From a virus (taxonomy: Duplodnaviria > Caudoviricetes): a DNA stretch of 31,912 nucleotides. The stretch lies in the IMG/VR virus record IMGVR_UViG_3300012347_000581, positions 1 to 31,912 of that record, one strand, 5' to 3'. Within the stretch, counting starts at the first letter, position 1, and the number at the start of each line of letters is the position of its first letter. This document shows positions 2,362 through 31,912 of this stretch, in pieces. The position numbers and the translations under genes are program-made. The notes beneath the pieces were generated by a model. That model ran no database searches. It saw only the letters and a program-made list of their open reading frames with translations, and had not been told where the DNA came from.

Positions 2362-2367
2362 GACTTG

Positions 2368-2374
2368 ATAAATA
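2368..2374 (+). promoter_or_regulatory. T4-late-like promoter (ATAAATA)
   Basis: ATAAATA ends 5 nt before ATG 2380; the same motif precedes other putative late genes. Confidence 0.5.
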
Positions 2375-2379
2375 GCTGC

Positions 2380-4562: not shown

Positions 4563-5472
4563 ATCAGTCCCTAATGCAAAAAGCCAAGAAAAGATAGATT
4601 TATTAAATTTTTTCTCACAAGGTGTTTCAGTAACTGGTGATGTTGCTATAAATGTTAACGACTACAACTATCAATTAACTGATGTTGGAGTTATTCAAGG
4701 ATGGGTACATACAGGATCTAAGTCAGGCCTGCACTTACAACTGCGAAATCAAGTAGTTCAATCACAGCTATTAGCAAAAAAATATGTAATAGCTGTTGAT
4801 AGTAATTTGTTTTTGTATGCAAATACATTAAATCCTATGCACTATCTTCGATATAGTTTCAATGGAGTGTTTCCAAATACTGGAATTTACTGCGATACGT
4901 TAGTCGACCCTACTCGATGGCAAACTATTAGTAAAGATCTCGGTTTAACTTTAAAAGATTATCGAACATCGGGGGACCATATTTTATTGTGTTTACAGCG
5001 TAATGGCGGTTGGAGTATGGGTTCAGTTGATGTACAAGACTGGGCAATACAGACTATTAATTCACTGCGTAAAGTTAGCGATCGTACAATAATAATTCGT
5101 CCACATCCCGGAGATAAAGCTAGTAAAGAATATCTTAATCCTGCTAATCCGAAATGTAAAATTAAGTTTTCTAAGCGAGTTAGATTAAGTACTAACCCGC
5201 ATTTAGTTGACGATTTAAAGAATTGTTGGGCAGCTGTAAATTACAATTCTAGTTCAGTAGTCGGGGCAGCAATAGAAGGTATTCCTATATTTGTAACAGA
5301 TTATACAAAGAGTCAATGCATTGAAATTGCAAATACAGATATTACACAAATTGAGAATCCGGTATTGTACAATAGACAGCAATGGGTTGAACGATTAAGT
5401 ATGTTCCATTGGAATTTTAACGATCTTAAAACTGGAAAATGCTGGGCACATATGAGATCATTTATACAGTAA
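4537..5472 (+). CDS. Capsule-biosynthesis-like putative glycosyltransferase
   Basis: IRPHPGD and YNSSSVVGAAIEGIP motifs. Confidence 0.55.
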   Translation: MTTVAIYHKSVPNAKSQEKIDLLNFFSQGVSVTGDVAINVNDYNYQLTDVGVIQGWVHTGSKSGLHLQLRNQVVQSQLLAKKYVIAVDSNLFLYANTLNPMHYLRYSFNGVFPNTGIYCDTLVDPTRWQTISKDLGLTLKDYRTSGDHILLCLQRNGGWSMGSVDVQDWAIQTINSLRKVSDRTIIIRPHPGDKASKEYLNPANPKCKIKFSKRVRLSTNPHLVDDLKNCWAAVNYNSSSVVGAAIEGIPIFVTDYTKSQCIEIANTDITQIENPVLYNRQQWVERLSMFHWNFNDLKTGKCWAHMRSFIQ

Positions 5473-6285
5473 TAGCTGTTCAATAGAGTAGAGTTTTTGC
5501 ATATAAGTTGACGGATTAGTTAATACACTTGACTCTAAATCACCGACTCTTCTTGGACGCTCAACAACTTCGAAGTTACAATTATTTACATGTTTAAAAA
5601 TCTCAATCATTTCTTTAACTGAGGTTCCTACTCCGTGCCCTAGATTTTCTATTGTTCCAGACGGAGTAGCTATTCCTTTAGCAATACCGTTGCAAATTTC
5701 ACTTACATGTGTATAATCACGAATACACGTTCCGTCTTTAGTATTATAATCTACTCCATATAAGTTAAATACGCCAGTTTTCTTGGCGTTAAGTAAACAT
5801 GCTAATAGTGTGTCTTTTCTCATACCGGCACCTGTAGTACCAGTAACATTATAAAATCTAAAAATAGTAAATGCAATATCATTTTCTTTGCAATATTGCG
5901 CAACAATATCTTCGGCCATCCTTTTAGATATCCCATACGGACTTCCCAGTCCTGCCGCTGACCCAGTAGATGCTAGTATAAAATTTTGAGTTTTAATATT
6001 TTTAAGCACATTTAATGTACCTAATACATTGGTAACATAATATAGTGCAGGGTTTAATACACTTGGACTAACAGATACTTCGGCAGCAAGATGCACAACT
6101 GCTTCATACTCGGTTGATATGCCCCAACTCGAATCATCAACTATATCTTTGTTGATGAATGTATGCACTGGTATTGCTGGCAATTGCTTATCTAAACCAT
6201 GTATTTCTACAGATTGATTAGATAATAACTCTGTAAGGTGGGACCCAATATAGCCGGCATTTCCGGTTATTAATATTTTACTCAT
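5458..6285 (-). CDS. NAD-dependent epimerase/dehydratase (GalE-like)
   Basis: GNAGYIG, HLAA, YGISK (YxxxK), RFYNV, DGTCIRDYTHV. Confidence 0.9.
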   Translation of the reverse strand: MSKILITGNAGYIGSHLTELLSNQSVEIHGLDKQLPAIPVHTFINKDIVDDSSWGISTEYEAVVHLAAEVSVSPSVLNPALYYVTNVLGTLNVLKNIKTQNFILASTGSAAGLGSPYGISKRMAEDIVAQYCKENDIAFTIFRFYNVTGTTGAGMRKDTLLACLLNAKKTGVFNLYGVDYNTKDGTCIRDYTHVSEICNGIAKGIATPSGTIENLGHGVGTSVKEMIEIFKHVNNCNFEVVERPRRVGDLESSVLTNPSTYMQKLYSIEQLLLYK

Positions 6286-7102
6286 TTATAAATGCTTTTA
6301 ATTCTTTAAGTTGTGTATCATAATCAGCAATATTAAAATTAAAATCAGTCCTAGTATTGACCAAGATTTTATTAACTGGTTTGTCACTAGCAGTCTGCAC
6401 AACTGTTTTCTTTAACTGAAAAATTTTATTAATTTTCGTTAGTAGTGTAAACTTATCAATAGTGTTATCGTTACTAACGAGATGATAAACTCCGCTTATT
6501 ACTGGGTTTTCGACATACTGAACAATGCACTTTGCTAGTTGTAACGTTGTAATTCCGTTCCACAATACATTATCCCAACCGTTTATTGTTTTGCTGGTAT
6601 TGTTAGATATCCAGTTGAATAACCCTGTTCCTGCTTTCTTAAGTTCGGGTCCTATGATACTAGTCCTGAATGTAATATCTTTAGCATTATTAATTTCACC
6701 GTGTGACTTTGATAAGCCGTATGGGTTAGTTTCGGTATGAGTCGCTGTTTCGATATAATTTCCTACTTTGCCATCAAACACACAATCAGTTGACAAGTGA
6801 ATAAGTTTTGTAGTGGTATCTTTTAACTTATGCTCAACAAACAACGGAAACCACGAATTAATAATGTCAGCTCGTGTTGGATTATCGATGCTATCTTTAA
6901 CTAATAATCCAATGCAATTAATTATAAAATCGCAATCAGGCATCTCTTCAAAAAATTTATGAACTGCAAGAATATCTTCAACATTAAGTAAATAATCAGC
7001 ATTAGATTTTGCTACAGTAATCACTTCGTACTTTTGCAATTTAAGATATTGAGTTATAATATGACCGGCCATACCATTAGCACCTAATATCATAATTTTC
7101 AT
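6278..7102 (-). CDS. RmlD-like NDP-4-keto-6-deoxyhexose reductase
   Basis: GANGMAG, HLSTDCVFDG, YGLSK, RTSIIG. Confidence 0.88.
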   Translation of the reverse strand: MKIMILGANGMAGHIITQYLKLQKYEVITVAKSNADYLLNVEDILAVHKFFEEMPDCDFIINCIGLLVKDSIDNPTRADIINSWFPLFVEHKLKDTTTKLIHLSTDCVFDGKVGNYIETATHTETNPYGLSKSHGEINNAKDITFRTSIIGPELKKAGTGLFNWISNNTSKTINGWDNVLWNGITTLQLAKCIVQYVENPVISGVYHLVSNDNTIDKFTLLTKINKIFQLKKTVVQTASDKPVNKILVNTRTDFNFNIADYDTQLKELKAFINE

Positions 7103-7827
7103 ATAGTATCCTTTGTATTAATTAGTGTATTTAACTTGTGAGATTCGACAAATTTTGCAATATTTTGTAAACCGATATGTTGTTTAGTTTTATTAGTTGA
7201 TGCAGCACTGTCGTGAATTCTTACTGAAGTTAATCCTTGATTAATACCACCTAGTATATACTTAGAAGTTAGTAAAATCCATAAGCATACATCTTCTCCT
7301 ATGCTAAATTCTTCTGGAAACTTGTTTTCTTTAAAGATAGCAGTTAACCCCATAACAGTAGGAGTTGCAATTTTACACTTGTTGATAATTTCTGGAAACA
7401 CATTACCGTGTAGCTTACCGGTTCCTTTTATATCAAACAACTTGCCGTCAGAATTAATTTTATTATACGAAGTATGGCTTAATGCTAAGTCGTTTAGCTC
7501 CATAAATTCAATTTGAGTTTTTAATTTATTAGGCAAAAATAAATCATCTGAATCTAAAAATGCAATATATTTTCCAGTTGCATGCAAAATTCCGGTATTT
7601 CTAGCTTTAGCAGGGCCTGCATTTTCTTGGCGAAGATATACAATTCTATTATCAGTAGTACACAGGTCGATTAAATCTGTTATATCTTCAGTTGAACCAT
7701 CATCAATTAACAATAATTCAAAATTATTATGAGTTTGAGACAATACGCTACGAATCGATTCAATGGTCCAGTCGACTCTATTAAAAAATGGCATTATCAC
7801 TGATACTTTAATATCGGTATAGCTCAT
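7099..7827 (-). CDS. GT2 glycosyltransferase
   Basis: SVIMP, IDDGSTE, NAGPAKARNTG, FLDSDD, GED. Confidence 0.92.
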   Translation of the reverse strand: MSYTDIKVSVIMPFFNRVDWTIESIRSVLSQTHNNFELLLIDDGSTEDITDLIDLCTTDNRIVYLRQENAGPAKARNTGILHATGKYIAFLDSDDLFLPNKLKTQIEFMELNDLALSHTSYNKINSDGKLFDIKGTGKLHGNVFPEIINKCKIATPTVMGLTAIFKENKFPEEFSIGEDVCLWILLTSKYILGGINQGLTSVRIHDSAASTNKTKQHIGLQNIAKFVESHKLNTLINTKDTI

Positions 7828-8804
7828 ATAAATTTTCCAGCAGTTAGCATAATTTTAATTTCTGATTTATTCATTATTTTAGTCTTTGATGAAAACTCGG
7901 TATATGGAAATTTGTCGAGATCTTTATATTTGTTAATTAATTCGTCTGAACAATTAACTGGCAAAGTTACAAAATAATCAGGACCATAACTATAAGACAA
8001 TACAGCTTCGTGTTCGGAAATTAGCATTTCGTCAAGCTTTTCTCCAGGACGAGTACCAGTTTCGACGATGTCGACGGTACCATAATGATCCATTAGCACT
8101 TCAGCTAAATCAGTAATGTAGCAAGCTGGCATATTCATTACAAACGTTTCTCCGCCGATGCTATCTGTCGATGCTTTAAACAACAAATTAATAGCTTCTT
8201 CTAACGTTAAAAAGAATCTAGTCATTTGTTTGTTAGTGATAGTAAGAGGACCACCATTTTTAATTTGTTCTACAAAAAACGGAATAACAGAGCCGTTCGA
8301 ACCCATAACATTACCTCCTCTCACACACACAAATTTAGTAGTATCTGATAACGTATTTGCCTGAATTATTAATTTCTCGCCTACTGATTTAGTCATTCCG
8401 TACAAGTTGAGAGGCTCAACAGCTTTATCAGTTGATACGTCAATAACCTTTTTAACTTTATTCTCAATAGCAGCATTTACAACATTCGTTGTACCTATAA
8501 TATTAGTTTTAATTGCTTCTTGTGGATGATCTTCACAAATAGGTACATGCTTTAGTGCAGCTAGATGAAAAATATAATCTACATTTTTAGTAGCAAATTT
8601 GACAGCATCTATATCTCGAATATCGCCAATTATGAATTTAATTTTATTATTATTAAATTTTCTCTGCATTAGAACTTGTTGGAGCTCTCCTCTAGAAAAA
8701 CAAATAATTTCTTTTACATTGTAGTTCTCTAATAACAGTCGAGTTAGTGTTTGTCCCCACGACCCAGTTCCGCCAGTTATTAAAATTCTTGATCCGTTAA
8801 ACAT
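7824..8804 (-). CDS. fnlA: UDP-GlcNAc 4,6-dehydratase (WbjB/FnlA/CapE family)
   Basis: GGTGSWG, AALKHVP, STDKAV, YGMTK, GNVMGSNGSV, MTRF, RPGEKL. Confidence 0.85.
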   Translation of the reverse strand: MFNGSRILITGGTGSWGQTLTRLLLENYNVKEIICFSRGELQQVLMQRKFNNNKIKFIIGDIRDIDAVKFATKNVDYIFHLAALKHVPICEDHPQEAIKTNIIGTTNVVNAAIENKVKKVIDVSTDKAVEPLNLYGMTKSVGEKLIIQANTLSDTTKFVCVRGGNVMGSNGSVIPFFVEQIKNGGPLTITNKQMTRFFLTLEEAINLLFKASTDSIGGETFVMNMPACYITDLAEVLMDHYGTVDIVETGTRPGEKLDEMLISEHEAVLSYSYGPDYFVTLPVNCSDELINKYKDLDKFPYTEFSSKTKIMNKSEIKIMLTAGKFI

Positions 8805-8812
8805 AATTTTCC

Positions 8813-9883
8813 TTAATTTGATAAAATAATACTAACAACTGTATCTGAAACATTGTCTTTTGTATACTCTAATGGTATACTCCAATCTGTCGATTTCACT
8901 TTCATTAATTGATAGCATCTTAGTATGCTTTCGGTAGTTAATCCACTAACAACATTTGACCCGCACCAAACAGTCTCTGGTCTTTCTGTAGTTTCTCGTA
9001 TAGTTATAGTCGGTATATTAAATAAACACATTTCTTCTTGAACAGTCCCGGAGTCACTAATTGCCATGATGCTATTTTGTTCTAATTTAACAAAATCGAA
9101 AAACCCTAGTGGTTCAGTAATTATAATATTTGGGTTTTGCACATTAATATTAAATTTTAATAATTTTTGCTTCGTCCTAGGATGACAACTAAAAATTATT
9201 TTATATTCCTTAGATATCTCTTCAAAGCTGTTAAAAATACTAAGCAGTCGTTGATCATTATCGACATTTTCTGCTCGATGCGCAGTAGCAATAATGTACT
9301 TATTTTTCTCAAGGCCTAATGTGTTTAAAATAGAAGATTGTTGGATTTCAGCATTGTAATATGTTAGTACTTCTTTGATTGGATTTCCAGTTACTAAGAT
9401 TTTATTGTTTGGAATATTTTCTCTTAATAAATTTTGTCTACTTAATTCAGTATAAGGTAAATTTATAGTTGATATAGAGTCTATTATTTTTCTATTTTTT
9501 TCTTCTGGAACTAGCAAATCATAGCATCGATTCCCGGCTTCCATATGATATACTGGAATTCCTAATCTTTCACATATTATTGCCGAAAGCCCTGAATTAG
9601 TATCGCCTAATATTAATACTCGATCTGGGTTAAATTCTGATATACATTTTTCAACACCTACAAACGTATTACCTAATTGCTGTGCAAAACTGGAATTAGT
9701 ATTACTAATAATATAATCCGGTTTTCTTATGTTTAATTGATCAAAAAATATATCGTTTAAATTCTGATCGTAATTTTGACCAGTATGTAATATTTTGTGA
9801 TTACATAATTTGTCTAACTTTGGAATAATTCTAGACAATCTAATAATTTCCGGTCGAGTTCCTAATATTGTTAATATTTTCAT
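8813..9883 (-). CDS. fnlC: UDP-HexNAc 2-epimerase (WbjD/FnlC type)
   Basis: GTRPEIIRLS, HTGQNYD, LGDTNS, HMEAGNRC, PEE-NR, SDSGTVQEE, TERPE. Confidence 0.88.
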   Translation of the reverse strand: MKILTILGTRPEIIRLSRIIPKLDKLCNHKILHTGQNYDQNLNDIFFDQLNIRKPDYIISNTNSSFAQQLGNTFVGVEKCISEFNPDRVLILGDTNSGLSAIICERLGIPVYHMEAGNRCYDLLVPEEKNRKIIDSISTINLPYTELSRQNLLRENIPNNKILVTGNPIKEVLTYYNAEIQQSSILNTLGLEKNKYIIATAHRAENVDNDQRLLSIFNSFEEISKEYKIIFSCHPRTKQKLLKFNINVQNPNIIITEPLGFFDFVKLEQNSIMAISDSGTVQEEMCLFNIPTITIRETTERPETVWCGSNVVSGLTTESILRCYQLMKVKSTDWSIPLEYTKDNVSDTVVSIILSN

Positions 9884-10407
9884 TTTTGAAAATACCCTAC
9901 AAAGTAGTGCTGTAACTTAGGTAAACGAATTTCAGTCCAATCTAAGAAATCATCTTTGCTCCACATACTTTTATGTAAGTCGTATGTATTGTTAAAACAC
10001 CATAACGACGGATCGTCGACATGTTCGTGATTTTGCGTCCATATTGTTTCTAACGGTGTAAGTATAAAAATCTTTTTATTAACTAGTTGTTTACACTGTT
10101 CAATAATAGTTTTACCATTTGCTTTATCAACATGTTCGATAAAATCAATCATTAAAATATAGTCAACTGGTTCAGATATTAATGATTTTAGACTTGTTTT
10201 TTCTAAGTCGGCAAGAATATCAGGGTGAACTTCACTCCATGCATCAATTGTTATTACATTACTAGCAATTTCTAAAAATGGAGAAGAATACAATTTTGGA
10301 CCGCACCCTATATCTAATAACGAACACTGGGGTTCTATGTTATCTTTTAAATATTCCAATAGTGCGTCATTAGAATACGCTAATTTTCCGTTTATGATAT
10401 GTTTCAT
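9880..10407 (-). CDS. Class I SAM-dependent methyltransferase
   Basis: LLDIGCG motif I; DFIEHV. Confidence 0.8.
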   Translation of the reverse strand: MKHIINGKLAYSNDALLEYLKDNIEPQCSLLDIGCGPKLYSSPFLEIASNVITIDAWSEVHPDILADLEKTSLKSLISEPVDYILMIDFIEHVDKANGKTIIEQCKQLVNKKIFILTPLETIWTQNHEHVDDPSLWCFNNTYDLHKSMWSKDDFLDWTEIRLPKLQHYFVGYFQK

Positions 10408-11186
10408 TTTAAATTTAAATAGTGGTTGTGTTCAGCACGAATGTGCCCAGATTCGTTGATTGAGTAAAACAATGATTTATTGTTAACACTAATTGGGGGG
10501 TTATTGGGATTTATTAATTTATCATGATACTGATGAATAACATACGGCTCAGCAACAAAAGTAATTGGTAATTTTAAGTTTTTAATTCTAACAAGTAATT
10601 CATCGTCGTCATATTCGTATCCGTTTGCAAATCGTTCGTCAAATCCGTTTAGTTTAACTAGATTGGCTCGTGTGATAGCCGCTGTAAAATGATAGCCTTT
10701 AGATCGATGCTCGACATGATTGTACCACCATGACATTTTTTTCTTACCGTGCCCTGTTGCATTTGGTACAATAGTATCGCCTGAATGCAATCTAGCAGTA
10801 TCAGCCGAATCAGTTGCGTAACAGTGAAACGTAAGATAATTGTTGTCGGTTAAATTAGCACGAGTGTATGCAATTACATCTCCGATATGACAACATTCGG
10901 GATTTTGTAAGATAATTTTATCGCCACTACAATAGGAAAATCCAACATTAAATGGTACACACGGATTATAGTAAGTCTTTGTTGGACCGATTATATCAGC
11001 CATTTTAATAATTTTAAAGTTAATTGACGGAAATTCTAAAGGAATAGAATCTAGCTGATGTGCAGTATCGCTAAAGTCGTCGACTATTACTACTTCGAAA
11101 TTTGTATCTGTAGTTTTTAAAATTGAATTTAACGTAAATCTTAAATGATGAATTCGGTTATAATATGCTGTTACAATTGAAATCAT
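10404..11186 (-). CDS. GT2 glycosyltransferase with GT7-like C-terminus
   Basis: ISIVTAYYN, IVDDFS, NGFDERFANGYEYDDDEL, HQYH. Confidence 0.85.
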   Translation of the reverse strand: MISIVTAYYNRIHHLRFTLNSILKTTDTNFEVVIVDDFSDTAHQLDSIPLEFPSINFKIIKMADIIGPTKTYYNPCVPFNVGFSYCSGDKIILQNPECCHIGDVIAYTRANLTDNNYLTFHCYATDSADTARLHSGDTIVPNATGHGKKKMSWWYNHVEHRSKGYHFTAAITRANLVKLNGFDERFANGYEYDDDELLVRIKNLKLPITFVAEPYVIHQYHDKLINPNNPPISVNNKSLFYSINESGHIRAEHNHYLNLK

Positions 11187-11869
11187 TGATTATCCTTATA
11201 AGTATTCCAAAATTTTGTTCTAGTTAAACTAGATTTACCATTTAATTTAGTTAATGCAATTCCCATAATGTAATTATGCAATTCTATAGTTACTACTTTT
11301 GCATTAATTGCATTATCGGCCGGTAAAAAAGTATTGTTATATGTTTCTAGTAATTTTTTAGCTGCATGCGGTTTTATGGCATATCCGCAACATCCGGGCA
11401 TTGACGAGTGAGTATACTCGATAGCTGCAGGCTTGCCATCTGGGTTTTCTAAGTATTTCATCCAATTTGGACTTTTCTTTGGATGCCCTAACGCAACAAT
11501 TAATACATCTTTCCATTCAATTGGTGTATACGGCCTAGATAAGACAATATCGTCTTCAAATATTAGAATTGGTTCGTTTAACTCCACACATTTCTCCCAT
11601 AGTCTGTAATGACTATAAAAGCACCCTTTGATACCAGGAGTTTGCATTTTTTCTAATGCAGGATTAGATAAATCAAACGTACCTTTAATGCCTTCGTGAT
11701 GTAATGCTCTACCTTCTGAGAGCATTTGTTGTGCGGCATCTACCCCGTATGTACCTTCAAACAATTCAACCGGCATGTTAAACTTTTCTAACTGTTCTTT
11801 TAAATTTAGTGCAGTCTCTAATGACGGGGCAATTTTTGATAAATGAATAATAAAACTTTTCATTTCCAA
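11183..11869 (-). CDS. GT25 family glycosyltransferase
   Basis: GCFYSHYRLW, IFEDD, GYAIKPHAAKKL, PAD; start may be the second Met (11863). Confidence 0.85.
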   Translation of the reverse strand: MEMKSFIIHLSKIAPSLETALNLKEQLEKFNMPVELFEGTYGVDAAQQMLSEGRALHHEGIKGTFDLSNPALEKMQTPGIKGCFYSHYRLWEKCVELNEPILIFEDDIVLSRPYTPIEWKDVLIVALGHPKKSPNWMKYLENPDGKPAAIEYTHSSMPGCCGYAIKPHAAKKLLETYNNTFLPADNAINAKVVTIELHNYIMGIALTKLNGKSSLTRTKFWNTYKDNQ

Positions 11870-12669
11870 TATGCCTCATTTCTTTTTACTGTTAAATCTT
11901 TATCTAGACTTCGACCTGCTGATTTTCGATTACCTTTTAAATGATCTAAATATGCACCCCATTGACTATTAATCAACGGATGCCCTTCACCCTTTATAAT
12001 CCCAGCACTCCAATTTTGCTGTTTCATAGTTGGAAACTTATGTCGAACTGCATCGAATACAAAGCTGTCATGCCATTCTTCTAATTGAAAAATACCATCT
12101 TCGGCTTGGTCATAAAATCGTTTAAACTCTTTTAAAAATTCTAAAACAATTGGCGATTTTAAATTCATTGCATACAATCCGCATTCAGAATACTTACCTT
12201 CTCTGCCTAAGTATGACAAATCTGCACTAGCTGTACATAACGCAGACACTGCATTAAATGTAACAGGACTGTGACACACAGTATCGGCATCCATCCATAA
12301 TAAAATATCAGCATCAGTCCGTGCCGCGCAGTCAAAAATTGCATATACTTTGTGAGCAAATCGAACAGCATCCCATTTAAAGCCTTTGCCAGAATCTTTT
12401 CGTTTTGATCGAATCGGATCTAATGATACGTCTCCGTTTGCTTTTGGAATATCTTTCCATTTGGTTTTAAAATTAGTGAGATCACTAACTGTATCTAAAT
12501 CAATTGTAATAACTTGATTTGCATCGGGAATATGTGGAGTGCATTTTTCCGGATATACATATAGTGATACTTCTTTTGGCCAGTTGGCGCAAAATGTATT
12601 AATCATACGTTGACCGTATGTTTCTAACCCTTTTTTGTGAAAGGTTGTTACTACTGCAATTTTTGTCAT
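11860..12669 (-). CDS. Putative nucleotide-sugar transferase (GT-A)
   Basis: RFAHKV, LLWMDAD, SECG, WHDSFVFD, DHLKG; start at MTKIAVV overlaps the upstream stop. Confidence 0.7.
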   Translation of the reverse strand: MTKIAVVTTFHKKGLETYGQRMINTFCANWPKEVSLYVYPEKCTPHIPDANQVITIDLDTVSDLTNFKTKWKDIPKANGDVSLDPIRSKRKDSGKGFKWDAVRFAHKVYAIFDCAARTDADILLWMDADTVCHSPVTFNAVSALCTASADLSYLGREGKYSECGLYAMNLKSPIVLEFLKEFKRFYDQAEDGIFQLEEWHDSFVFDAVRHKFPTMKQQNWSAGIIKGEGHPLINSQWGAYLDHLKGNRKSAGRSLDKDLTVKRNEAYWK

Positions 12670-13061
12670 GATGGGATCCATTTCTGCATACGCTTAAAGA
12701 TTTCTACTAACGAATAACTCTCCGATCTAAAATATAAATAATCTTCTGCAGAAAGGGAATCTGCACCTTCAGTAAATATAATAGGCCGATAGCTAGTCCA
12801 TACGGGTTTTAATTTGCTTAAATTTGAGAAATGAGAATGATCTATAAATATAAAATCAATATCGGGAAAGATATTTACATCTTGAAAACCTTGTCTATGT
12901 ACAACATTTTTAAATCTCACTGATGGGTCGACTGCATCAATAACAAATACTGTACCGCAATGGGCTATTAGATCAGGTAAATACCCTAATCCAGATCCTA
13001 CCACTAAACAATTGCGGCAGCTAGACGACGATTGTAATATTCTTTTAGAAAATTTGCTCAT
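12666..13061 (-). CDS. Hypothetical protein (possibly degenerate Rossmann/methyltransferase-like)
   Basis: 131 aa, LVVGSGLG; first gene of the minus-strand operon. Confidence 0.65.
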   Translation of the reverse strand: MSKFSKRILQSSSSCRNCLVVGSGLGYLPDLIAHCGTVFVIDAVDPSVRFKNVVHRQGFQDVNIFPDIDFIFIDHSHFSNLSKLKPVWTSYRPIIFTEGADSLSAEDYLYFRSESYSLVEIFKRMQKWIPS

Positions 13062-24921: not shown

Positions 24922-25284
24922 ATGAGAGCTATAGAATTCATAAACGAAGCACACGAAAAGCAACTTCGAAAAAGTGCTAAGGCTAGTATCAATAGCTTGC
25001 GAAAAAATCCAACCTTAGATAATAACAGTAATCCTTACTTAGCATATCGATTTGGTATTGCAATGGCAGGTAGTCCAGACTATGAAATGGATGTACACGG
25101 TCCGCTTGGAAGTTCATTCGTTACTACTGATTACACAGACGGTGATACTAAGATTAGGCAAGGTGCAGAAAAAATAATGGGTGTATCAAGTCAATCTGTA
25201 ACTGGTAAAGGTTCGTGCGAAATGGACATTGTTAATAAAATCAGCCCAGTTGCTGCTCCAAAGAAAAACAAATACGGAGTTTAA
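24922..25284 (+). CDS. Hypothetical, possible virion internal protein
   Basis: 120 aa; N-terminal MRAIEFINEA. Confidence 0.7.
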   Translation: MRAIEFINEAHEKQLRKSAKASINSLRKNPTLDNNSNPYLAYRFGIAMAGSPDYEMDVHGPLGSSFVTTDYTDGDTKIRQGAEKIMGVSSQSVTGKGSCEMDIVNKISPVAAPKKNKYGV

Positions 25285-25919
25285 GTATTACCTACATCTA
25301 CTTTTGGAGAAGTAGTACTACCTCGTATATAAGGTTTGTGTATTACTAAATTTGTAGTTAAGTATTGCCAGGGGACCACGATGTTCCCTATTTGTTTATC
25401 TACTGCTTGGGCTCCAGTAGTTTTACTAAATTCGACTAATTTAGATGCTTGAATGGGCGTCAATGTATACGCCCATGCACCCCGAGACCACAATCCGGTT
25501 ATCTCGTTAATTTGGTCTCCACGTCCATCTGCCAGATGTAATTTCCAAATGCATTGATTTAAATCTAGATCCGTTGGCCAAGGACCTTGCACCCATGCAT
25601 CGTGTTCCATGACTATGATTGGTTCTTGCAACGATATACAGTGTTGCCATAGACTAAAATGACTATGAAAACATCCCCTTGCACCGGGCCTTTTTACAAT
25701 AGCTCCTCGATTTAACAGTGTAACACCTATAAGTTCCCAAGATTGGCTAGTAATAGTGTAACCGTCAGTTGCGGGCCATGCAGATACATCCCACCCGAAT
25801 TTTTGTGCCTGTGTGATTGTAGCTTGGCTATTTGATTGAGATTGTTTGCAACTTCGAATGCTATTTACATGCGATGTTGCAGACAGTTGAGTTATTACAA
25901 ATGCTTTAGGTTGTTTCAT
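25281..25919 (-). CDS. GT25 family glycosyltransferase
   Basis: GCFHSHFSLW, VMEHD, AYTLTPIQASKL, AVD. Confidence 0.8.
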   Translation of the reverse strand: MKQPKAFVITQLSATSHVNSIRSCKQSQSNSQATITQAQKFGWDVSAWPATDGYTITSQSWELIGVTLLNRGAIVKRPGARGCFHSHFSLWQHCISLQEPIIVMEHDAWVQGPWPTDLDLNQCIWKLHLADGRGDQINEITGLWSRGAWAYTLTPIQASKLVEFSKTTGAQAVDKQIGNIVVPWQYLTTNLVIHKPYIRGSTTSPKVDVGNT

Positions 25920-26308: not shown

Positions 26309-27310
26309 CTATATATCAATGTTATGTGTATTCTTGATGTAACTTGATACTTCTTGATATACTTTTTTCAAATATATATTAATAACTACGGCTTCTTTAG
26401 GGTCGTCTCGAGACAAGCTTTTACCTGCATGTTTCTTAGTATAATATACGATTCCCGACTCGATCATCTTTTTAATTTTAGCAGGATGTTCTATAAATGC
26501 GGCTGATGGTAAATGCGAAATAGTAGCAACAACTTCACCGGCAATGTTATGTGCAAACGCATCAATTTCCGACGGTGATGCTTTATATAATTTATACCAT
26601 CGAGCAGATCGAGGAGTACTAGGCGTCTTATTATGTTGTAAACTAAGTGCCTTAAACTCATCGTTGGCACCCTGTCTAAGTTTCGGATCACTTAGCCGGC
26701 TACGATACATAAGTTTATTTCGACCTCGATTGATCTGATAGGTATGTTGTTTACCGTGTACCATCTCATGGATAAATGTGTTACACAACGCAGCTACTGG
26801 ATCTGCAACATCGTCGCTTTTATTAATAATTTCTGTAATTGCCGGAATCAATTTTCGATTAGTTAACTTGTCTTGTATCTCATCAATGTCGTCTCGACGA
26901 TACGGTGTATACACTGAACTAGTTATCTTAGCAGCAATTGGAGTGATGATTGCTAATGTGAAGTCTTGAATTGTTCTAATCGAAAGCTTCACATAGTTTG
27001 CATTTGATATGCTGCCGTGTGCTCGTATGTCAGTAAACGCCACTCCGTTAAGTGCCACAGTCATCTTATAGTAGCCAAAATCAAATAGCTTCTTTTCTAA
27101 ATCAGCTGTTAGTGCTTTGCTGTATGCTCTTTTTAAAACACTTTCTACTTCAACGCCAGAAATGCAATCTTCTATTTCTAAAAGAACTTCGTCAGTTTGT
27201 AATGCAGGTAAGTTATCCGTTAACGATTTGATAACTATGCCATACAATGCAGGATAGTGTTTGGTGAGACTGATTGCTTCAGTGAGGGATATGTTGGTGA
27301 ATAAATTCAT
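26309..27310 (-). CDS. HExxH zincin-like metallopeptidase-motif protein
   Basis: FIHEMVHGKQ plus downstream EIDAFAH; ATAAATA at 27318-27324. Confidence 0.65.
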   Translation of the reverse strand: MNLFTNISLTEAISLTKHYPALYGIVIKSLTDNLPALQTDEVLLEIEDCISGVEVESVLKRAYSKALTADLEKKLFDFGYYKMTVALNGVAFTDIRAHGSISNANYVKLSIRTIQDFTLAIITPIAAKITSSVYTPYRRDDIDEIQDKLTNRKLIPAITEIINKSDDVADPVAALCNTFIHEMVHGKQHTYQINRGRNKLMYRSRLSDPKLRQGANDEFKALSLQHNKTPSTPRSARWYKLYKASPSEIDAFAHNIAGEVVATISHLPSAAFIEHPAKIKKMIESGIVYYTKKHAGKSLSRDDPKEAVVINIYLKKVYQEVSSYIKNTHNIDI

Positions 27311-27604
27311 AGTACATTATTTATTTGATTTACCTGACTTCCCTCTGCGGTGTAACCTCCAGGGGCGGAAAGCAAATTTTTACAGAATATCTACGCAGTT
27401 TATTCCCCACCCAGAGATAGTGATTATACAGTAAGTACACAGTAATAGCACAGTAGCAACACAGTAGCAACACAGTACTGATAACGTATACAGCACAGTA
27501 ATTGCACAGTTTGATACCGGGCGGCGCGGGGTTGTTGCGGTTCGCTACTGTGATATGCACCATCGAACAGCGTTCGCGAGACTGAGTGTTAAGTCTCTTG
27601 CACG

Positions 27605-27807
27605 CCCAAAATGGTTCTGCTACGGTAAAAATTTGGGCGCGCAAAAATTTTAGAACAGTACTTAACGTGGTGGTCTGGTGATTCTACAGCAACGACACAG
27701 TGATTCTACAGTAAGTACACAGTACCCAAAAGGGTTTGCGGGGGTAAAAAACTGGGCGCGTAAAAATTTTAGGATGAGTACTTTTCTTTTCAAGGTGGTG
27801 ATTCTAC
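27605..27807 (+). repeat. Imperfect direct repeat, ~120-bp period
   Basis: CCCAAAA..GGTAAAAA..TGGGCGCG.AAAAATTTTAG..AGTACTT..TGGTGATTCTAC from 27605 and 27725. Confidence 0.8.
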
Positions 27808-27809
27808 AC

Positions 27810-27837
27810 TACAGTGTTGTAAAAATACAACACTGTA
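27810..27837. repeat. Perfect 12-bp inverted repeat
   Basis: TACAGTGTTGTA-AAAA-TACAACACTGTA. Confidence 0.85.
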
Positions 27838-27880
27838 TGTATATATAGCCCCCCACCCAACCTTACAGCAACCTTACAAA

Positions 27881-28230
27881 AAGCTTGCAATTGCTTGCAA
27901 ATGTTTGCAAAAGCTTGCATTGCAAATGCTAACAAAAGCTTGCAAAAGCTTGCAAATGCTAACAAAAGCTTGCATTGCAAAAGCTTGCAAATGCTAACAA
28001 AAGCTTGCAATTGCTTGCAAATGTTTGCGTTACAAAAAATTACAAGATGTTACAAAACATTACACTTTGTTACATTACAATTACATTACACTTTGTTACA
28101 ATACGCAACACTTTGTTACATTACAATTACATTACACTTTGTTACGCTATGCAATACGTTGTTACATTACAATTACATTACATAACCTTACATTTTGTTA
28201 CAAAACATTACAATATAAAAAGCTTGCAAT
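27881..28230 (+). repeat. GCTTGCAA ~10-bp repeats followed by a TTACA pentamer array
   Basis: Read directly; second copy at 30150-30420. Confidence 0.9.
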
Positions 28231-28592
28231 TGTTTGCATACACTTGCAAATGTTTGCGTGTTGTTTTATTGCAACATATACTTGCATAGTGTTTTTTATA
28301 CAGCGTATTTTGCACAATAGCTTTTAAACGTGTTTTAAGCACGTTTTTAGCGTGTTTTTTGTGTAGTGCATAGCAAAGTATACATTTAACAAAAAAACGC
28401 TTAAAACGCGTTTTTTACTAAAATACTTGCAAAAGCTAACAGTAAACACAGTGCAAGTATTTGCAAACATTTTGTAAGTTTGTTGTAAGCTAATAATTTA
28501 ATAATATAAACAACAAAGCAGTTTTAATACTATTTGTAGCGTGTTGCAAGTACACGTACTAGTACGCTTTTAGCGTACACACTAATTGTAAT

Positions 28593-28854
28593 ATGCAAAA
28601 TGCTTGCAAATGCTTGCATTAGCAAAAAACAGTAAAAAGTGTGTTATAATACAGTTATGTAAGCAGTTTTAATACTATTACAAGCGTGTTGTAATACACG
28701 TACTAACTGTTTTATGCAAAATGCTTGCAAATGCTAACATTAGTATAAAACAGTAAAAATTGTGCTATAATAAGCACTATGCAAAGCAGTTTAACTACTA
28801 TTTGCAAGCGTGTTGTAATTACACGTACTAGTATGCTATTAGCATACACACTAA
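28593..28854 (+). promoter_or_regulatory. Two tandem extended -10 promoter plus hairpin units
   Basis: TGTTATAAT 28642-28650 and TGCTATAAT 28763-28771, 121 bp apart, with shared flanks. Confidence 0.7.
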
Positions 28855-28905
28855 TGTATTATGCTAGTAGCGTATATTTTGTAACTTTAACTTTTACTTT
28901 ATATT

Positions 28906-29238
28906 ATGCAAACTAACACAAACAACGTTTTTGCGCACGTTTTTACGCAATTAGCTAACACAAGCAACGCAGTTGCAAGTAATAGCAATAAAAAGTACAC
29001 TGTTGCAGGTATTAGCACACTGCCCAATGGTGAGACTAAAGTACGCTTAGCTAACAACTTGCGTGATAGGATTGGGATTTTGCGTAGGAATGGACACAGC
29101 AATATTATGCTTATGCAGTTGGAGAGTGCAATGACGGAAGCAGAAGTAGCAGCTTACTTGTTGACAGTGGATTTTGGTACAGACGACTTTAATGCAGTAG
29201 TTAAAGCTAATGCAGTAAAATTGGGCGTAAGCAAGTAA
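28906..29238 (+). CDS. Hypothetical 110-aa protein, paralog 1
   Basis: ~86% aa identity to 31213-31545 with many synonymous differences. Confidence 0.9.
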   Translation: MQTNTNNVFAHVFTQLANTSNAVASNSNKKYTVAGISTLPNGETKVRLANNLRDRIGILRRNGHSNIMLMQLESAMTEAEVAAYLLTVDFGTDDFNAVVKANAVKLGVSK

Positions 29239-29249
29239 TGTAATACAAC

Positions 29250-29293
29250 GTAACATACACGCAAGTGTATGTTACGTTTTATTTTTATTTTTA
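29250..29293 (+). terminator. Intrinsic terminator
   Basis: GTAACATACAC-GCAA-GTGTATGTTAC plus T runs. Confidence 0.8.
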
Positions 29294-29346
29294 TAAATTC
29301 GGGCACGGGTAGCCCTCCTCTTAGGTGGCAGCGATACTTGTAGCGG

Positions 29347-30138
29347 GCAGCGGGGCCGAAGGCGAAGGTATTAGACTCTCCGTCCTGCCAACCTGCATCT
29401 GCCAATCTGCCTACACCTTCACCGTCTCCTATACCTACATCGCCTCCTGCACCTACTACGTCTTCTACACCTACTACGTCTTCTACACCTACACCTAGTT
29501 CTGTGTCTTCTACACCGCCTGTGTCACTACTATCGCCACCGCCGCCTGCATCGCTGTCTGCTCCACTACCGTCCGCCCAACCAACCAACCCCGCAGCGGG
29601 GCCGAAGGAGATTGTGGCTCCTGTCTGTGTCCTCCTCGCACCAATCGCTTCCTACTATCAACCAACACCACCTGTCTAGTCTAAACAGTCAAACCAATCT
29701 GCCAATCGCTAATATAGAGCAGCGGGGCCGAATGCGGCTGTGGCTGGTAGATTGTGGCACCTGTCACCGTCCAGGTCTGTCGCATAACCTGTCACACCAA
29801 TGTCTCCTAGTTAACCTGCGTCCGCCAGGCACGTCGCAGCGGGGCCGAAGGAGAAGGAGACAGGTAGATTGTGGCAGGTAGATGGTAACAGGCGAGGTTG
29901 GAGAATAGGCGACCAGAGCGAGGCGAGGTTGGAGAATGATTGCCCTCCACCGCCTCCGAGTCCTGGTTGCCTGCCTTCAGATCATTCTCCGATTCGGCCG
30001 GCACGTCGCAGCGGGGCCTTTGCAAATGCTTGCAAATGCTTGCATATGCTTGCATTACAAAAAGTTACACTTTGTTACACACTGTCGTCGCTCTGCTAAC
30101 CAGTCGTCTGTCTTCTCGCGTCGGCCTGCAGCGGGGCC
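29347..30138 (+). repeat. Array of the exact 11-mer GCAGCGGGGCC with strand-polarised spacers
   Basis: Copies at 29347, 29593, 29719, 29836, 30008, 30128 (7th at 31825). Confidence 0.95.
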
Positions 30139-30744
30139 TTTGCATAGTCTTGCAAATGCTTGCAAATGCTTGCATTACATTTTGTTACACTTTGTTACAA
30201 AACATTACAGTACGTTACGTTACACTTTGTTACAATACGCAACACTTTGTTACATTACAATTACATTACAAAAAGTTACAGCGTCTTACACTTTGTTACA
30301 TTACAATTACATTACAAAAAGTTACGTTATGCAACAAAAAGTTACATTACAATTACATTACAAAAAACAACACTTTGTTACAAAACATTACAATATAAAA
30401 TACTTGCAAACGCTTGCAATGTTGTATTTTTGTAACGCCACTTGTCTGCAAGCTTTTGCAAACTGTTGTTAGCTTTTGCAAACAGTGCTAAAACGTGTTT
30501 TAAGCTGTTTTTTATTAAATGTATATGCTACTATGCACTACGCAAAAAACACGCTAAAAACGTGCTTAAAACACGTTTAAAAGCTATTGTGTTTTTGCTT
30601 GCAGTAAAATGCACAATGCAGCATTTGTTTAGTGTTAGTATTTGCAAGCTTTTTGTAAGTTTGCTGTAAGCTAGCAGTGTAATAATACAGTTATGCAAGC
30701 AGTTAAGTAGTTTACTAGTTAGTTGCTTGCTATACGCTACAATA

Positions 30745-30877
30745 CAAAATGCTTGCAAATGCTTGCATTAGTAAAAATAGCAAAAAAGTGTGCTACAATA
30801 GCACTATGTAAGCAGTTTTAATACTATTACAAGCGTATTGCAATATACGTACTAGTACGCTTTTAGCGTACACACTA
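30745..30877 (+). promoter_or_regulatory. Extended -10 promoter plus double-hairpin unit
   Basis: TGCTACAAT 30791-30799; flanks homologous to the 28593-28854 units. Confidence 0.65.
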
Positions 30878-30928
30878 TGTAAGCGTTAAAAGCGTATATT
30901 TTTAAAACTTTAACTTTTTAATAATATT

Positions 30929-31114
30929 ATGCAAAAAAATGCAAAAACTGTTGTGCATACAAGTGCTAACAAAAACTTTAGTGTGTTATTAGTTAATAAT
31001 ACAGTAGTATTAACTAACATTAACATTGTAATGTTTAGTAACACGTATAGTACACGTAAAGCAGCACGTGCAATGTTTACAGCTTTTAAGTATTACACAC
31101 TTAAAATTAAGTAA
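30929..31114 (+). CDS. Basic 61-aa protein with no D, E, G, P or W
   Basis: Same TTTAACTTT...ATATTATG leader and downstream GCAA hairpin as the 110-aa genes. Confidence 0.65.
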   Translation: MQKNAKTVVHTSANKNFSVLLVNNTVVLTNINIVMFSNTYSTRKAARAMFTAFKYYTLKIK

Positions 31115-31143
31115 CATAACGTAATGTAAGTAAGTAACGTAAT

Positions 31144-31173
31144 GTAACATACACACGCAAGTGTGTATGTTAC
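31144..31173 (+). terminator. GCAA-loop hairpin (weak terminator or processing stem)
   Basis: GTAACATACACAC-GCAA-GTGTGTATGTTAC; no U tract. Confidence 0.55.
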
Positions 31174-31212
31174 TATTACACAATGTAGCAATTTTAACTT
31201 TAAAGTAATATT

Positions 31213-31545
31213 ATGTCAAATACAAATAACGCGTTCGCCCATGTTTTCGCCCAATTGTCCAACACTAGCAATGCAGTTGGTAGTACGTCCAACAAGAAGT
31301 ACACGGTTGCTGGTATTAGCACACTGCCTGGTGGCGGCGAGACGAAGGTGCGCTTGGCGAACAACTTGAAGGATCGCATTGGTATCTTGAGGAGGAACGG
31401 ACACACGAACATTATGCTTATGCAATTGGAGAGCGCGATGACGGAGAGCGAGATTGCAGCGTACTTGTTGACTGTGGACTTTGGCAGCGATGAGTTTAAT
31501 GCGGTTGTGAAGGCTAATGCTGTTAAGTTGGGCGTTAGCAAGTAA
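31213..31545 (+). CDS. Hypothetical 110-aa protein, paralog 2
   Basis: Paralog of 28906-29238. Confidence 0.9.
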   Translation: MSNTNNAFAHVFAQLSNTSNAVGSTSNKKYTVAGISTLPGGGETKVRLANNLKDRIGILRRNGHTNIMLMQLESAMTESEIAAYLLTVDFGSDEFNAVVKANAVKLGVSK

Positions 31546-31557
31546 TGTAACGTAATG

Positions 31558-31590
31558 TAACATACACACGCAAGTGTGTATGTTATTATT
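31558..31590 (+). terminator. GCAA-loop hairpin/terminator
   Basis: TAACATACACAC-GCAA-GTGTGTATGTTA then TTATT. Confidence 0.6.
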
Positions 31591-31620
31591 ACAATTTTTA
31601 ACAATTAATTGGAGAATGAT

Positions 31621-31743
31621 ATGGAAGAGTTCGGATTTGAGATTGTGCTGTGCACGGTGGCTTTTGTGTTAAGTTGGGCGGCAGCTGAGATGACGGTGAT
31701 GATTGCAACACACGAGGCGGAACAGCGGGGTGGTGAAGAGTAA
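31621..31743 (+). CDS. Small (40-aa) putative membrane protein, not in the ORF track
   Basis: GGAG RBS at 31611; MEEFGFEIVLCTVAFVLSWAAAEMTVMIATHEAEQRGGEE; terminator follows. Confidence 0.6.
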   Translation: MEEFGFEIVLCTVAFVLSWAAAEMTVMIATHEAEQRGGEE

Positions 31744-31747
31744 GAGG

Positions 31748-31767
31748 AGGGGGCGTGAGCCCCTTTT
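31748..31767 (+). terminator. Intrinsic terminator
   Basis: GGGGC-GTGA-GCCCC-TTTT. Confidence 0.7.
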
Positions 31768-31912
31768 CTGTTGGCTGGAAGAGGGGTGGTGTGCCCTCCA
31801 CACGTTCGGCCGAGCTTGTACTGCGCAGCGGGGCCGGTGGAGAAGGAGACAGAATTCTCTAACCGCCTCCACCGCCTCCACCGCCTCCACCACTGTCACT
31901 TCCGCTAGTGTT

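Follow-up and report, generated by a model that had tools for sequence, protein, structure and literature searches.

The window studied here, 31,912 nucleotides of DNA from an aquatic phage, contains two deserts in which G is almost never followed by a purine on either strand; in related phages the same exclusion runs through whole blocks of small genes, on the template strand only. It is probable that in these phages the guanines that precede a purine (GR) carry a bulky modification, that such guanines on the template strand hinder the host RNA polymerase and that the units predicted to be read first have for this reason lost the motif. Directly observed are the exclusion and its bias towards one strand, its coincidence with units that run from promoter to terminator, the price paid in proline and codon choice, and the modification genes of the relatives.

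Two deserts in a jumbo phage fragment

The window covers 32 kb of the genome, roughly 350 kb in size, of a jumbo phage related to PA5oct and Paride. Its helicase is 50% identical to that of PA5oct/Paride and 78-83% identical to those of its closest long relatives, and the order of genes from SSB to helicase is the same. The clade appears related to Wroclawvirus/Arenbergviridae and is probably a different genus.

A program recount of GA, GG, TC and CC returned exactly the 2 and 3 sites given for the deserts in the preliminary description (Table 1), and its figure of more than 100 expected per desert is borne out by local base composition, which yields 173 and 159. The longest site-free gaps in the deserts measure 822 and 771 nt, against a maximum of 80 in the rest of the window. 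As had also been claimed, G and C stay common in other dinucleotides (GC, GT, AC, CA and TG have observed/expected ratios of 1.4-3.3), and no single repeat unit accounts for the depletion: hand-picked non-repeat subsegments of 594 and 755 nt hold 0 and 2 sites, while shuffles average 92.7 (minimum 67, 5000 shuffles) and 115.5 (minimum 88). GG occurs 0 times and CC once in each desert, so that every GG/CC context is missing, not just GGC. No peak was seen in the scan for the control classes RG/CY, GY/RC and YG/CR. Contigs from three independent DNA runs leave none of the 30 bins of 27300-31912 uncovered, which rules out an assembly artefact. Against the locus L340, 23 substitutions create no site (7.3 expected, P about 7e-5). 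Among the core genes of the window, 23 of 25 match the synonymous expectation for TC/CC; several have GA/GG below their synonymous null, which may itself be weak.

The borders of the deserts differ by strand. On the + strand, TC/CC are nearly absent as far as 29298 (only 28186, 29023 and 29024 remain), while GA/GG are back from 29008; in the second unit, GA/GG are missing between 30136 and 31278. The spacer between the deserts is motif-rich, and non-coding DNA as such is therefore not depleted.

Table 1. Features of the desert region, in window coordinates
Feature	Position	Strand	Remarks
Unit 1: coding-strand TC/CC exclusion (template G-purine)	27873..29298	+	Left: 28186, 29023, 29024 (Pro40 codon)
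Desert 1	27874..29007	both	2 GR/YC sites (GA 28046, CC 28186); 173 expected
TTGCAA-type palindromic repeat array	27883..28026		Mostly 10-bp spacing; repeat analysis
TTACA-rich repeats, 46-bp period	28035..28275		Second set 30215-30409
Imperfect palindrome, ~100 nt	28313..28414		Inverted copy, 91% complementary, 30490-30591
Predicted extended -10 promoter (TGnTATAAT, no -35 match)	28642..28650	+	TTGCA direct repeat upstream
Second predicted extended -10 promoter, unit 1	28763..28771	+	
Predicted 5' leader, three hairpins without GG/CC/GA/TC	28779..28905	+	Predicted fold
110-aa gene, copy 1	28906..29238	+	22 homologues
Terminator-like hairpin and T run, without GR/YC	29247..29288	+	Near-identical at 31139-31180, 31552-31593
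GC-rich spacer, six CAGCGGGG elements	29300..30149		140 TC/CC, 83 GA/GG
Desert 2	30150..31215	both	3 sites (TC 30284, CC 30438, TC 30445); 159 expected
Predicted extended -10 promoter, unit 2 (TGnTACAAT)	30791..30799	+	
Leader paralogous to 28779-28905	30807..30928	+	Same three predicted hairpins
61-aa ORF	30929..31114	+	No Pro, Gly, Glu, Asp, Trp
Leftward sigma70-like promoter match	31191..31219	-	TTGACA-17-TAAAAT, 11/12
110-aa gene, copy 2	31213..31545	+	Protein 87% identical to copy 1
40-aa acidic ORF with Shine-Dalgarno	31621..31743	+	TC/CC 1, 3.6 expected, not significant

The TTGCAA-type palindromes are possible protein-binding sites. The two ~100-nt palindromes fold with z scores of -1.25 and -2.23, and the first leader with -34.9 kcal/mol as RNA (z -2.2 as DNA). 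Homology of the 100-nt palindrome to that of Paride could not be demonstrated (mean identity 39%). A 26-nt motif of the window has no match in viral contigs.

No Shine-Dalgarno sequence precedes the ATG of the first 110-aa gene. Copy 1 has 2 TC/CC where synonymous recoding predicts 14.4, and 29 GA/GG where it predicts 27.9, which is the same strand asymmetry as in the blocks of relatives; its codons 1-34 hold neither. In copy 2, codons 1-39 carry 12 TC/CC and codons 40-110 just 2 (7.9 expected). Searches with the protein returned nothing from annotated phages, IMG/VR (window query), Pfam, PHROGs or the ESM Atlas. The 61-aa ORF has 0 TC/CC (7.2 expected) and 0 GA/GG (4.9 expected), and is likely a real gene: over codons 1-41, 5 of 6 substitutions against L340 are synonymous as judged by eye. 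The L340 copy has indels close to its 3' end. If the leftward promoter match is active, desert 2 could be transcribed in both directions. Contigs of RNA run X19 reach into both 110-aa genes and one leader (9 of 30 bins), but they are unstranded, differ from the window sequence and are not counted as evidence.

Template-strand blocks in related phages

In the relatives, a promoter-dense block of small genes, 0.4-2 kb long and one to a genome, has zero TC/CC on its coding strand. GA/GG remain common there, and it is the template strand that lacks G-purine; because the signal is single-stranded, two-strand scans of these genomes showed little at first. The exclusion from "either strand" in the preliminary description thus holds within the deserts of the window but is a special case. 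Three relatives (G027, G003 and G005; 200-353 kb scanned) have one notable TC/CC-free stretch each, of 921, 949 and 619 nt, where 67, 59 and 48 TC/CC are expected and 103, 120 and 70 GA/GG are present. Each stretch also carries two or three sigma70 promoters in the same orientation, and neighbouring genes with equally good promoters have ordinary TC/CC. Judged by eye, most stretches open within a promoter or close to one, and what bounds them on the far side is a terminator-like hairpin, the promoter that follows or the end of a gene.

A homologue of the 110-aa protein adjoins these blocks clade-wide. Around it, 11 of 34 unique loci have a strict stretch (at least 30 TC/CC expected; control classes stay below 9), of up to 1613 nt (122 expected). 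A strict block within 4 kb is missing at the other 23, and partial depletion forms a continuum. When many narrower motifs were scanned across 38 loci, of which nearly all lack a strict block, nothing clear emerged; the number of motifs tried inflates the top scores.

No gene family is common to every block. In the commonest, 36 of 66 unique genes have 0 TC/CC, against 12-33 expected. Proline vanishes from the block proteins; indeed, 120 close homologues of this family contain not one in 15,018 residues. Its members are small, acidic proteins (20% D+E, 5% K+R).

The untranscribed spacer of the block-opening promoters is also depleted (0.25 against 1.16 sites; n = 8 against 417; P = 0.009), whereas the 40 nt upstream are not, which favours an effect on DNA over one on RNA. 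In most relatives GA/GG on the other strand stand at about 75-90% of expectation. Low TC/CC just 3' of promoters is partly generic, being found in XaC1 (10, 22.9 expected) and EJP2 (28, 39.9 expected); in G027 the count is 19 against 73.7.

Modification genes and known modified phages

As the preliminary description had noted, no dpdA-like gene is present; gene searches of the 32-kb window found neither a dpdA-family transglycosylase nor any other modification gene. The DpdA/Que genes that it had thought worth seeking were found in the closest long relatives, which encode DpdA3, DpdL, a glycosyltransferase, FolE and QueE, of 7-deazaguanine DNA modification. DpdA3 is present in all three relatives that are at least 90% complete, and the dpdA3 of G005, G014 and G025 is 47-48% identical to that of PA5oct. 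FolE, QueE and DpdL were found in G005, G014 and G027, where a Paride query detected no QueD. All five relatives tested have the glycosyltransferase, an assignment based on weak Pfam hits (E 1e-3 in PA5oct, 0.05 in G005, 7e-12 in the BUDD homologue). Canonical DpdA (NF041059) was found in none of five genomes (Paride, G005, G014, G025, G003), nor was TGT (PF01702) in Paride, the one genome searched. Several unrelated phages also have a glycosyltransferase-like gene beside dpdA and dpdL, which points to an undescribed sugar-bearing deazaguanine.

Modification genes are not sufficient for a block. No stretch was found in Phosso, ACP17 and BUDD (DpdA, DpdL, glycosyltransferase), in Vibrio 2.275.O (DpdA3), or near the sigma70 promoters of two complete relatives with DpdA3 and glycosyltransferase (37 of 37 promoters in G043, 30 of 35 in G063). 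Three of three related jumbo phages without modification genes, Atu_ph07, XaC1 and EJP2, have no stretch; there are small control peaks in XaC1 (GA/TC) and Atu_ph07 (GG/CC). TTGCAA/TTGCAT was rejected as a GA-avoiding -35 element, as XaC1 prefers it without modification genes and the relatives use TTGACA.

PA5oct is listed with DpdA3, DpdL, FolE, QueD and QueE (PMC10516641 Data S1). Its dpdA3, dpdL and adjoining glycosyltransferase genes are EST35_0316-0318. Restriction digests point to GA/GG as the context of its modified G: the DNA resists EcoRI, XbaI, BsaI and BmrI, whose sites contain GA or GG (PMC12191111, section 8), and the list of enzymes that do cut is inferred from a ten-enzyme panel named there for F8. 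ApaLI is the odd enzyme in this pattern, and Paride has only 2 ApaLI sites. DpdA3 enzymes are reported to replace all G; therefore no sequence context comes from DpdA3 alone. PA5oct depends on the host RNA polymerase, is attacked by modification-dependent END nucleases and carries an inhibitor gene. The two ncRNAs that it expresses most strongly have promoters in motif-free gaps of 86 and 67 nt, and normal TC/CC in their bodies. At the 20 PA5oct promoters tested, of 32 published, CT is low as well (18, 27.6 expected).

Small patches free of GR/YC are found at promoters and at palindromes in the cultured relative Paride; some of the palindromes have no predicted promoter, and 18 sites would be expected in the largest patch. 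By coordinate offset, 2 of its 7 peaks fall in the PA5oct terminal repeat and 5 outside. The window has the core gene order of PA5oct/Paride, its close relatives carry the same dpdA3, dpdL and glycosyltransferase genes, and the GA/GG context reported for PA5oct is the motif excluded in the window, although an exclusion testifies to a modified context only indirectly. However, the Paride patches are 70-220 nt long and two-stranded, whereas the window's clade has template-strand blocks of 0.4-2 kb through genes. The PA5oct/Paride literature examined reports no motif avoidance, and a template-strand G-purine exclusion rule was not found in published literature.

CAjan, cited as precedent in the preliminary description, has dPreQ0 at GA and GGC, made by DpdA1; in Iggy the context is GA. 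The precedent stands as regards a context-specific modification of G before a purine, but not in its motif, since the window misses every GG context, nor in its enzyme, DpdA1 being a type not found in the relatives, which have DpdA3. CAjan and Iggy have no long motif-free stretch (the largest holds 9 and 6 expected sites), and their main papers do not mention motif depletion, avoidance, promoters or transcription. Base J of kinetoplastids is a glucosylated DNA base tied to RNA polymerase stopping, an action that resembles the one proposed for the bulky G. Unlike that G, it is a thymine-based modification of eukaryotes that sits at terminators, where a protein complex recognises it; the modified G would be genome-wide and avoided by a short block. 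In T5 first-step-transfer DNA and other early phage DNA, the part of the genome used first is purged of a short word. There the words are host restriction sites, avoided on both strands; here the phage's own modification probably targets the missing word, and the strict ban applies to a single strand.

A block to transcription and its alternatives

In the explanation that we favour, this phage would carry the modification genes of its relatives. Guanines before A or G would be replaced by a bulky 7-deazaguanine derivative, the GR context being that suggested by the PA5oct digests and the context-specific bulk being supplied by the glycosyltransferase encoded beside dpdA3/dpdL. Lying on the template strand, these bases would impede the host RNA polymerase, and the motif would have been lost from those units that are predicted to be transcribed first when modified DNA enters the cell. 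The block would be immediate-early and transcribed by the host polymerase; relief of the hindrance elsewhere in the genome would come from the block's products or from the earliest progeny DNA, still unmodified. The deserts of the window would be an extreme form of this rule, two-stranded because a hairpin or palindrome arm without TC/CC forces the other arm to lack GA/GG. Non-template sites appear mildly disfavoured too, and transcription of desert 2 both ways may add to its two-strand form. In PMC4838386, no class of analogue inhibited bacterial RNA polymerases in vitro more than the 7-substituted 7-deazaguanines; inhibition occurs at initiation, not elongation, for groups up to phenyl, elongation having been tested with just one G analogue.

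The modified-GR idea of the preliminary description is supported by the genes of the relatives, the PA5oct digests and the Paride patches, and requires correction from "either strand" to the template strand in relatives. Its proposal that double-stranded, first-injected DNA is shielded fares badly, since an exclusion that is template-only and runs through whole genes points to transcription. A bolder extension of the favoured explanation, which we regard as speculative, is that the modification also serves to gate transcription. At GR, glycosylated deazaguanines would stop the host polymerase on the incoming genome except in a "boot sector" whose template strand lacks the motif; the small proteins of this sector would lift the block, and motif-dense, modification-dependent stop signs (codons 1-39 of copy 2 and the GGGG elements) would order expression.

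It is unlikely, if worth pursuing, that a host defence reads the motif during transcription, through a factor on polymerase stalled at a modified template G or an enzyme acting on YC cytosines of the displaced strand; the block would then encode an inhibitor and have to be read before the inhibitor exists. A block in only some gene-bearing lineages would follow because hosts differ, the small acidic character of the commonest block protein recalls DNA-mimic inhibitors, and PA5oct has its nuclease inhibitor. Yet known modification-dependent nucleases act on duplex DNA regardless of the direction of transcription, the motif fits the PA5oct digests without a further enzyme, and the literature searched holds no defence of such specificity. 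Avoidance of UC/CC by the first transcripts, under attack from an early endoribonuclease or RNA-modifying enzyme, would suit borders that track transcription units and a strict ban on the mRNA-like strand; it is quite improbable given the depleted promoter spacers (n = 8), the depletion of both strands over about 700 nt upstream of promoters in the window, and PA5oct, where depletion marks promoters and not RNA bodies.

We think it very unlikely that exposed or first-injected duplex is kept unmodified, as protection from modification-dependent nucleases or for origin or activator binding. The two-stranded deserts with their phased palindromic repeats and the promoterless Paride patches would fit, but the other-strand GA/GG counts of most relatives imply a duplex that is still modified, and motif-rich DNA flanks and parts the deserts; this explanation may still account for the upstream repeat arrays. 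Local mutation pressure without selection, by C-to-T changes at TC/CC on the non-transcribed strand or mutagenic decay of modified G, has little to commend it beyond an aquatic habitat and the fact that TC and CC are classic UV and deaminase contexts. The borders are sharp to a few bases, equally promoted neighbours and most core genes (23 of 25) are ordinary, the non-coding spacer keeps its motifs, C is still abundant after purines and proline has gone from whole proteins. The chance that repeat expansion or assembly produced the deserts is negligible: both deserts consist in part of tandem repeats and their units are paralogues, but the non-repeat parts are just as empty, unrelated coding sequences in relatives follow the rule and the region is present in independent runs.

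If modified template guanines do hinder the host polymerase, a strand-specific desert would make a likely modification motif readable straight from sequence. In cultured PA5oct and Paride, modified G is predicted to matter chiefly when it lies in the template strand. The desert also marks genes that probably need to be expressed first, and so candidate host-takeover or anti-defence proteins, among them a family with more than 1,200 unannotated members. The acidic family of the blocks has no hit in Pfam, PHROGs or PDB; in the ESM Atlas it matches only unnamed viral clusters, one of which has DUF4313 on 11% of its members (score 0.88), a lead only.

Two motif-poor units in the window

The two deserts are almost devoid of GA/GG (GR) and TC/CC (YC). 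They hold 2 (desert 1) and 3 (desert 2) motif sites, as counted in the preliminary description, where local composition predicts 173 and 159. Its claim that the exclusion extends beyond the repeats is borne out as well: hand-picked non-repeat parts contain 0 sites in 594 nt (shuffle mean 92.7) and a second such set 2 in 755 nt (shuffle mean 115.5). No peak was found in the scan for the remaining G-neighbour classes, used as controls. The stretch is present, whole or in part, in 20 of the 24 public runs listed, which cover 13 studies, largely of fresh water (one of the 20 may be the source sample), and contigs of three DNA runs cover 30 of its 30 bins. Compared with desert 2, its close variant L340 shows changes in 23 of 594 columns, a few of them next to indels; no site arises from any of these changes, against 7.3 expected (P about 7e-5). 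The feature is real and strongly selected.

The window is an entire 31.9-kb virus record encoding SSB, UvsX, UvsY, a UvsW-type helicase, a primase and a replicative helicase. Its helicase is 49.9% identical to that of PA5oct and Paride, cultured Wroclawvirus jumbo phages, and up to 89% identical to those of uncultured contigs, whose genomes measure about 350 kb by completeness estimates. The deserts start about 4 kb past the helicase, where the small-gene region of the relatives begins. The sugar-enzyme block (see table) may serve in glycosylation of the virion or of DNA, and the repeats and elements just left of desert 1 are possibly an origin or end region; a AAAAATTGGCCGCGC element similar to theirs is present in the relative L035.

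Features and their coordinates in the window and in other phage records
Feature	Record	Position	Remarks
Sugar-enzyme genes	window	2365-13061; 25281-25919	inserted between uvsY and UvsW-type helicase; GT8, two GT2, two GT25, nucleotide-sugar epimerases, UDP-GlcNAc 2-epimerase, methyltransferase
333-aa ORF	window	26309-27310 (-)	adjoins desert 1; no Pfam/PHROG match, no relative among viral contigs
Repeats and elements	window	27414-27790	11-bp ACAGTA-rich repeats; GGGCGCG-AAAAATTTT
Desert 1	window	27874-29007	
Desert 2	window	30150-31215	
Just before the starts of 110-aa genes and ORF61	window	28870-28905; 30895-30928; 31185-31212	no Shine-Dalgarno
CAGCGGGG	window	29348-31833	8 copies on one strand; 0.1 expected
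Fused variant	window	28985 to 31290	2304 nt skipped
HhH-GPD glycosylase-like gene	G005	L115:11253-11699	short; adjoins folE, also in G014 and G027
Gene annotated 'glycosylase'	Phosso	149815-150348	precedes dpdL and glycosyltransferase
Acidic-protein homologue	BUDD	82621-82950	36-37%; also in X1
Small two-strand peak	Iggy	27701-27850	GA/TC, Iggy's own motif
Small two-strand peak	CAjan	53681-53830	GR/YC
Small two-strand peak	XaC1	165371-165580	GA/TC; no modification genes

The region is built from two paralogous units. Each unit has arrays of TTGCAA and of TTACA repeats and a palindrome of 100 nt, whose orientation is opposite in the other unit, along with matches to extended -10 promoters, a leader with three hairpins, small genes and a terminator hairpin. 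The motif is avoided in all of these parts; the GC-rich spacer separating the units has 223 motif sites. Exclusion from both strands, as first described, applies within the deserts but not past desert 1, where the strands differ. GA/GG is back from codon 35 of the first 110-aa gene (copy 1) and normal over the whole gene (29 versus 27.9 expected), while TC/CC remains low up to the terminator (2 versus 14.4; 0 of 3000 synonymous recodings are as low). Copy 2 begins with 12 TC/CC, so the purge downstream of promoter 2 is incomplete.

Three independent runs carry a variant fusing a copy-1-like gene start to the remainder of copy 2, and other joints in the runs suggest additional tandem units; the units recombine or differ in number. 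A common AT-rich element, TTTTAACTTT..ATATTATG, precedes the starts of the 110-aa genes and of ORF61, a 61-aa ORF. Unlike these genes, the relatives' blocks retain GGAG internally. In close homologues of the 110-aa protein (P0002-P0022) the N-terminus carries a common extension, about 28 residues long and made up almost exclusively of N, T, S, A, V, F, Q and L. The clade-wide homologue lacks this extension, which may have arisen from motif-free DNA.

Strand-specific stretches in relatives

In G027 (98% complete at 353 kb, with a helicase 83% identical to the window's), G005 and G003, depletion is deepest just past the homologue of the 110-aa gene. Coding-strand TC/CC, that is, template-strand G-purine, is absent there over 921, 619 and 949 nt (67, 48 and 59 expected), with 103, 70 and 120 GA/GG kept; each record has one such stretch only. 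Among 34 unique loci around the homologue (45 collected), a strict stretch lies within 4 kb in 11 and is absent in 23, and depletion among relatives is graded. In most of the 52 stretches of at least 400 nt (a few of which are redundant), the start falls within or close to a promoter, and the stretch runs up to a hairpin, the following promoter or the end of a gene.

The blocks' commonest gene encodes an acidic protein of 105-160 aa. After removal of 7 loci without the keyed motif and 13 duplicates from 86 examined, 36 of 66 such genes have zero TC/CC; many others encode longer proteins of other lineages. The exclusion has a protein cost: 120 close homologues, not independent since they are 86-99% identical, contain no proline in 15,018 residues. 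Read by eye, the AT-rich relatives L467, L479 and L471 approach the window's two-strand state; the GA/GG that they retain belong mostly to ribosome-binding sites and to codons that are needed. Together with the strand-specific stretches, this indicates a ban on G-purine in the template strand, whereas in the non-template strand it is only minimised.

The same GGCCCCGCTG element that recurs in the window (see table) is over-represented in the relatives' small-gene region, where its copies share one orientation, and at 8 of 49 block ends it comes after the block. Read on the template strand, it consists of consecutive modifiable G. The cultured Xanthomonas phages BUDD and X1 have a distant homologue of the acidic protein; in BUDD, TC/CC is ordinary across the surrounding kilobase.

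Probable guanine modification and rival explanations

The PA5oct entry lists DpdA3, DpdL, FolE, QueD and QueE (PMC10516641, supplement Data S1), and a glycosyltransferase-like gene sits between its dpdA3 and dpdL. G005, G014 and G027 all carry DpdA3, DpdL, the glycosyltransferase-like gene, FolE and QueE; of 30 records, mainly fragments, 10 yielded DpdA3, and all 3 near-complete ones have it. The glycosylase-like genes (see table) are candidate parts of the modification or of its removal. PA5oct digests suggest modified G in GA/GG; the one misfit, ApaLI, is removed because Paride has only 2 ApaLI sites. Paride shows 7 GR/YC peaks, a tandem promoter upstream of its tRNA cluster among them, and none in control classes, and motif-free gaps hold the promoters of PA5oct's two highly transcribed ncRNAs. 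PA5oct requires host RNA polymerase, according to PMC7318152. Atu_ph07 (480 of 490 kb scanned), XaC1 and EJP2, jumbo phages in which modification genes are absent, have no stretch; the XaC1 peak marks the false-positive level.

It is probable, though far from assured, that template-strand modified G hinders the host polymerase and that first-read genes were purged of the motif. The window phage would modify G at GR, with a base probably bearing a sugar; the blocks would be immediate-early, and the hindrance might be relieved by their products or by replication. With good confidence, we attribute the motif to GR modification by the phage itself, no matter which protein is hindered. Several observations do not fit easily. 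No stretch occurs in Phosso, ACP17, BUDD, Vibrio 2.275.O, CAjan or Iggy, all of which carry genes of the DpdA type; the complete G043 and G063, with DpdA3 and a glycosyltransferase, have no block near the promoters read (37 of 37 and 30 of 35); and in Paride a long block on the template strand is missing. The main rival, a host defence that works while transcription is under way, would account better for the patchy distribution of blocks; we regard it as rather unlikely. Targeting at the RNA level seems quite improbable, as untranscribed promoter spacers are depleted too (n=8) and the window's deserts extend upstream.

According to PMC4838386, 7-substituted 7-deazaG was a strong inhibitor of bacterial RNA polymerases in vitro, but it acted on initiation and no stall appeared during elongation, so that an elongation block would require a bulkier group than tested, or a host factor. 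Replacement of all G is reported for DpdA3 members in bioRxiv 2023.04.13.536721; the context must therefore arise from a second step or a different specificity. Chemically, the phage likely uses a variation on an already known system.

Base J offers a functional analogy, as does T5 first-step DNA. The literature searched, with most subscription journals outside its coverage, yielded no case of a hypermodified phage that avoids a motif or shows an effect confined to one strand, and neither the CAjan nor the Iggy paper has the relevant words in its main text. A template-strand purge of first-read genes appears undescribed, and it is testable in the cultured relatives.
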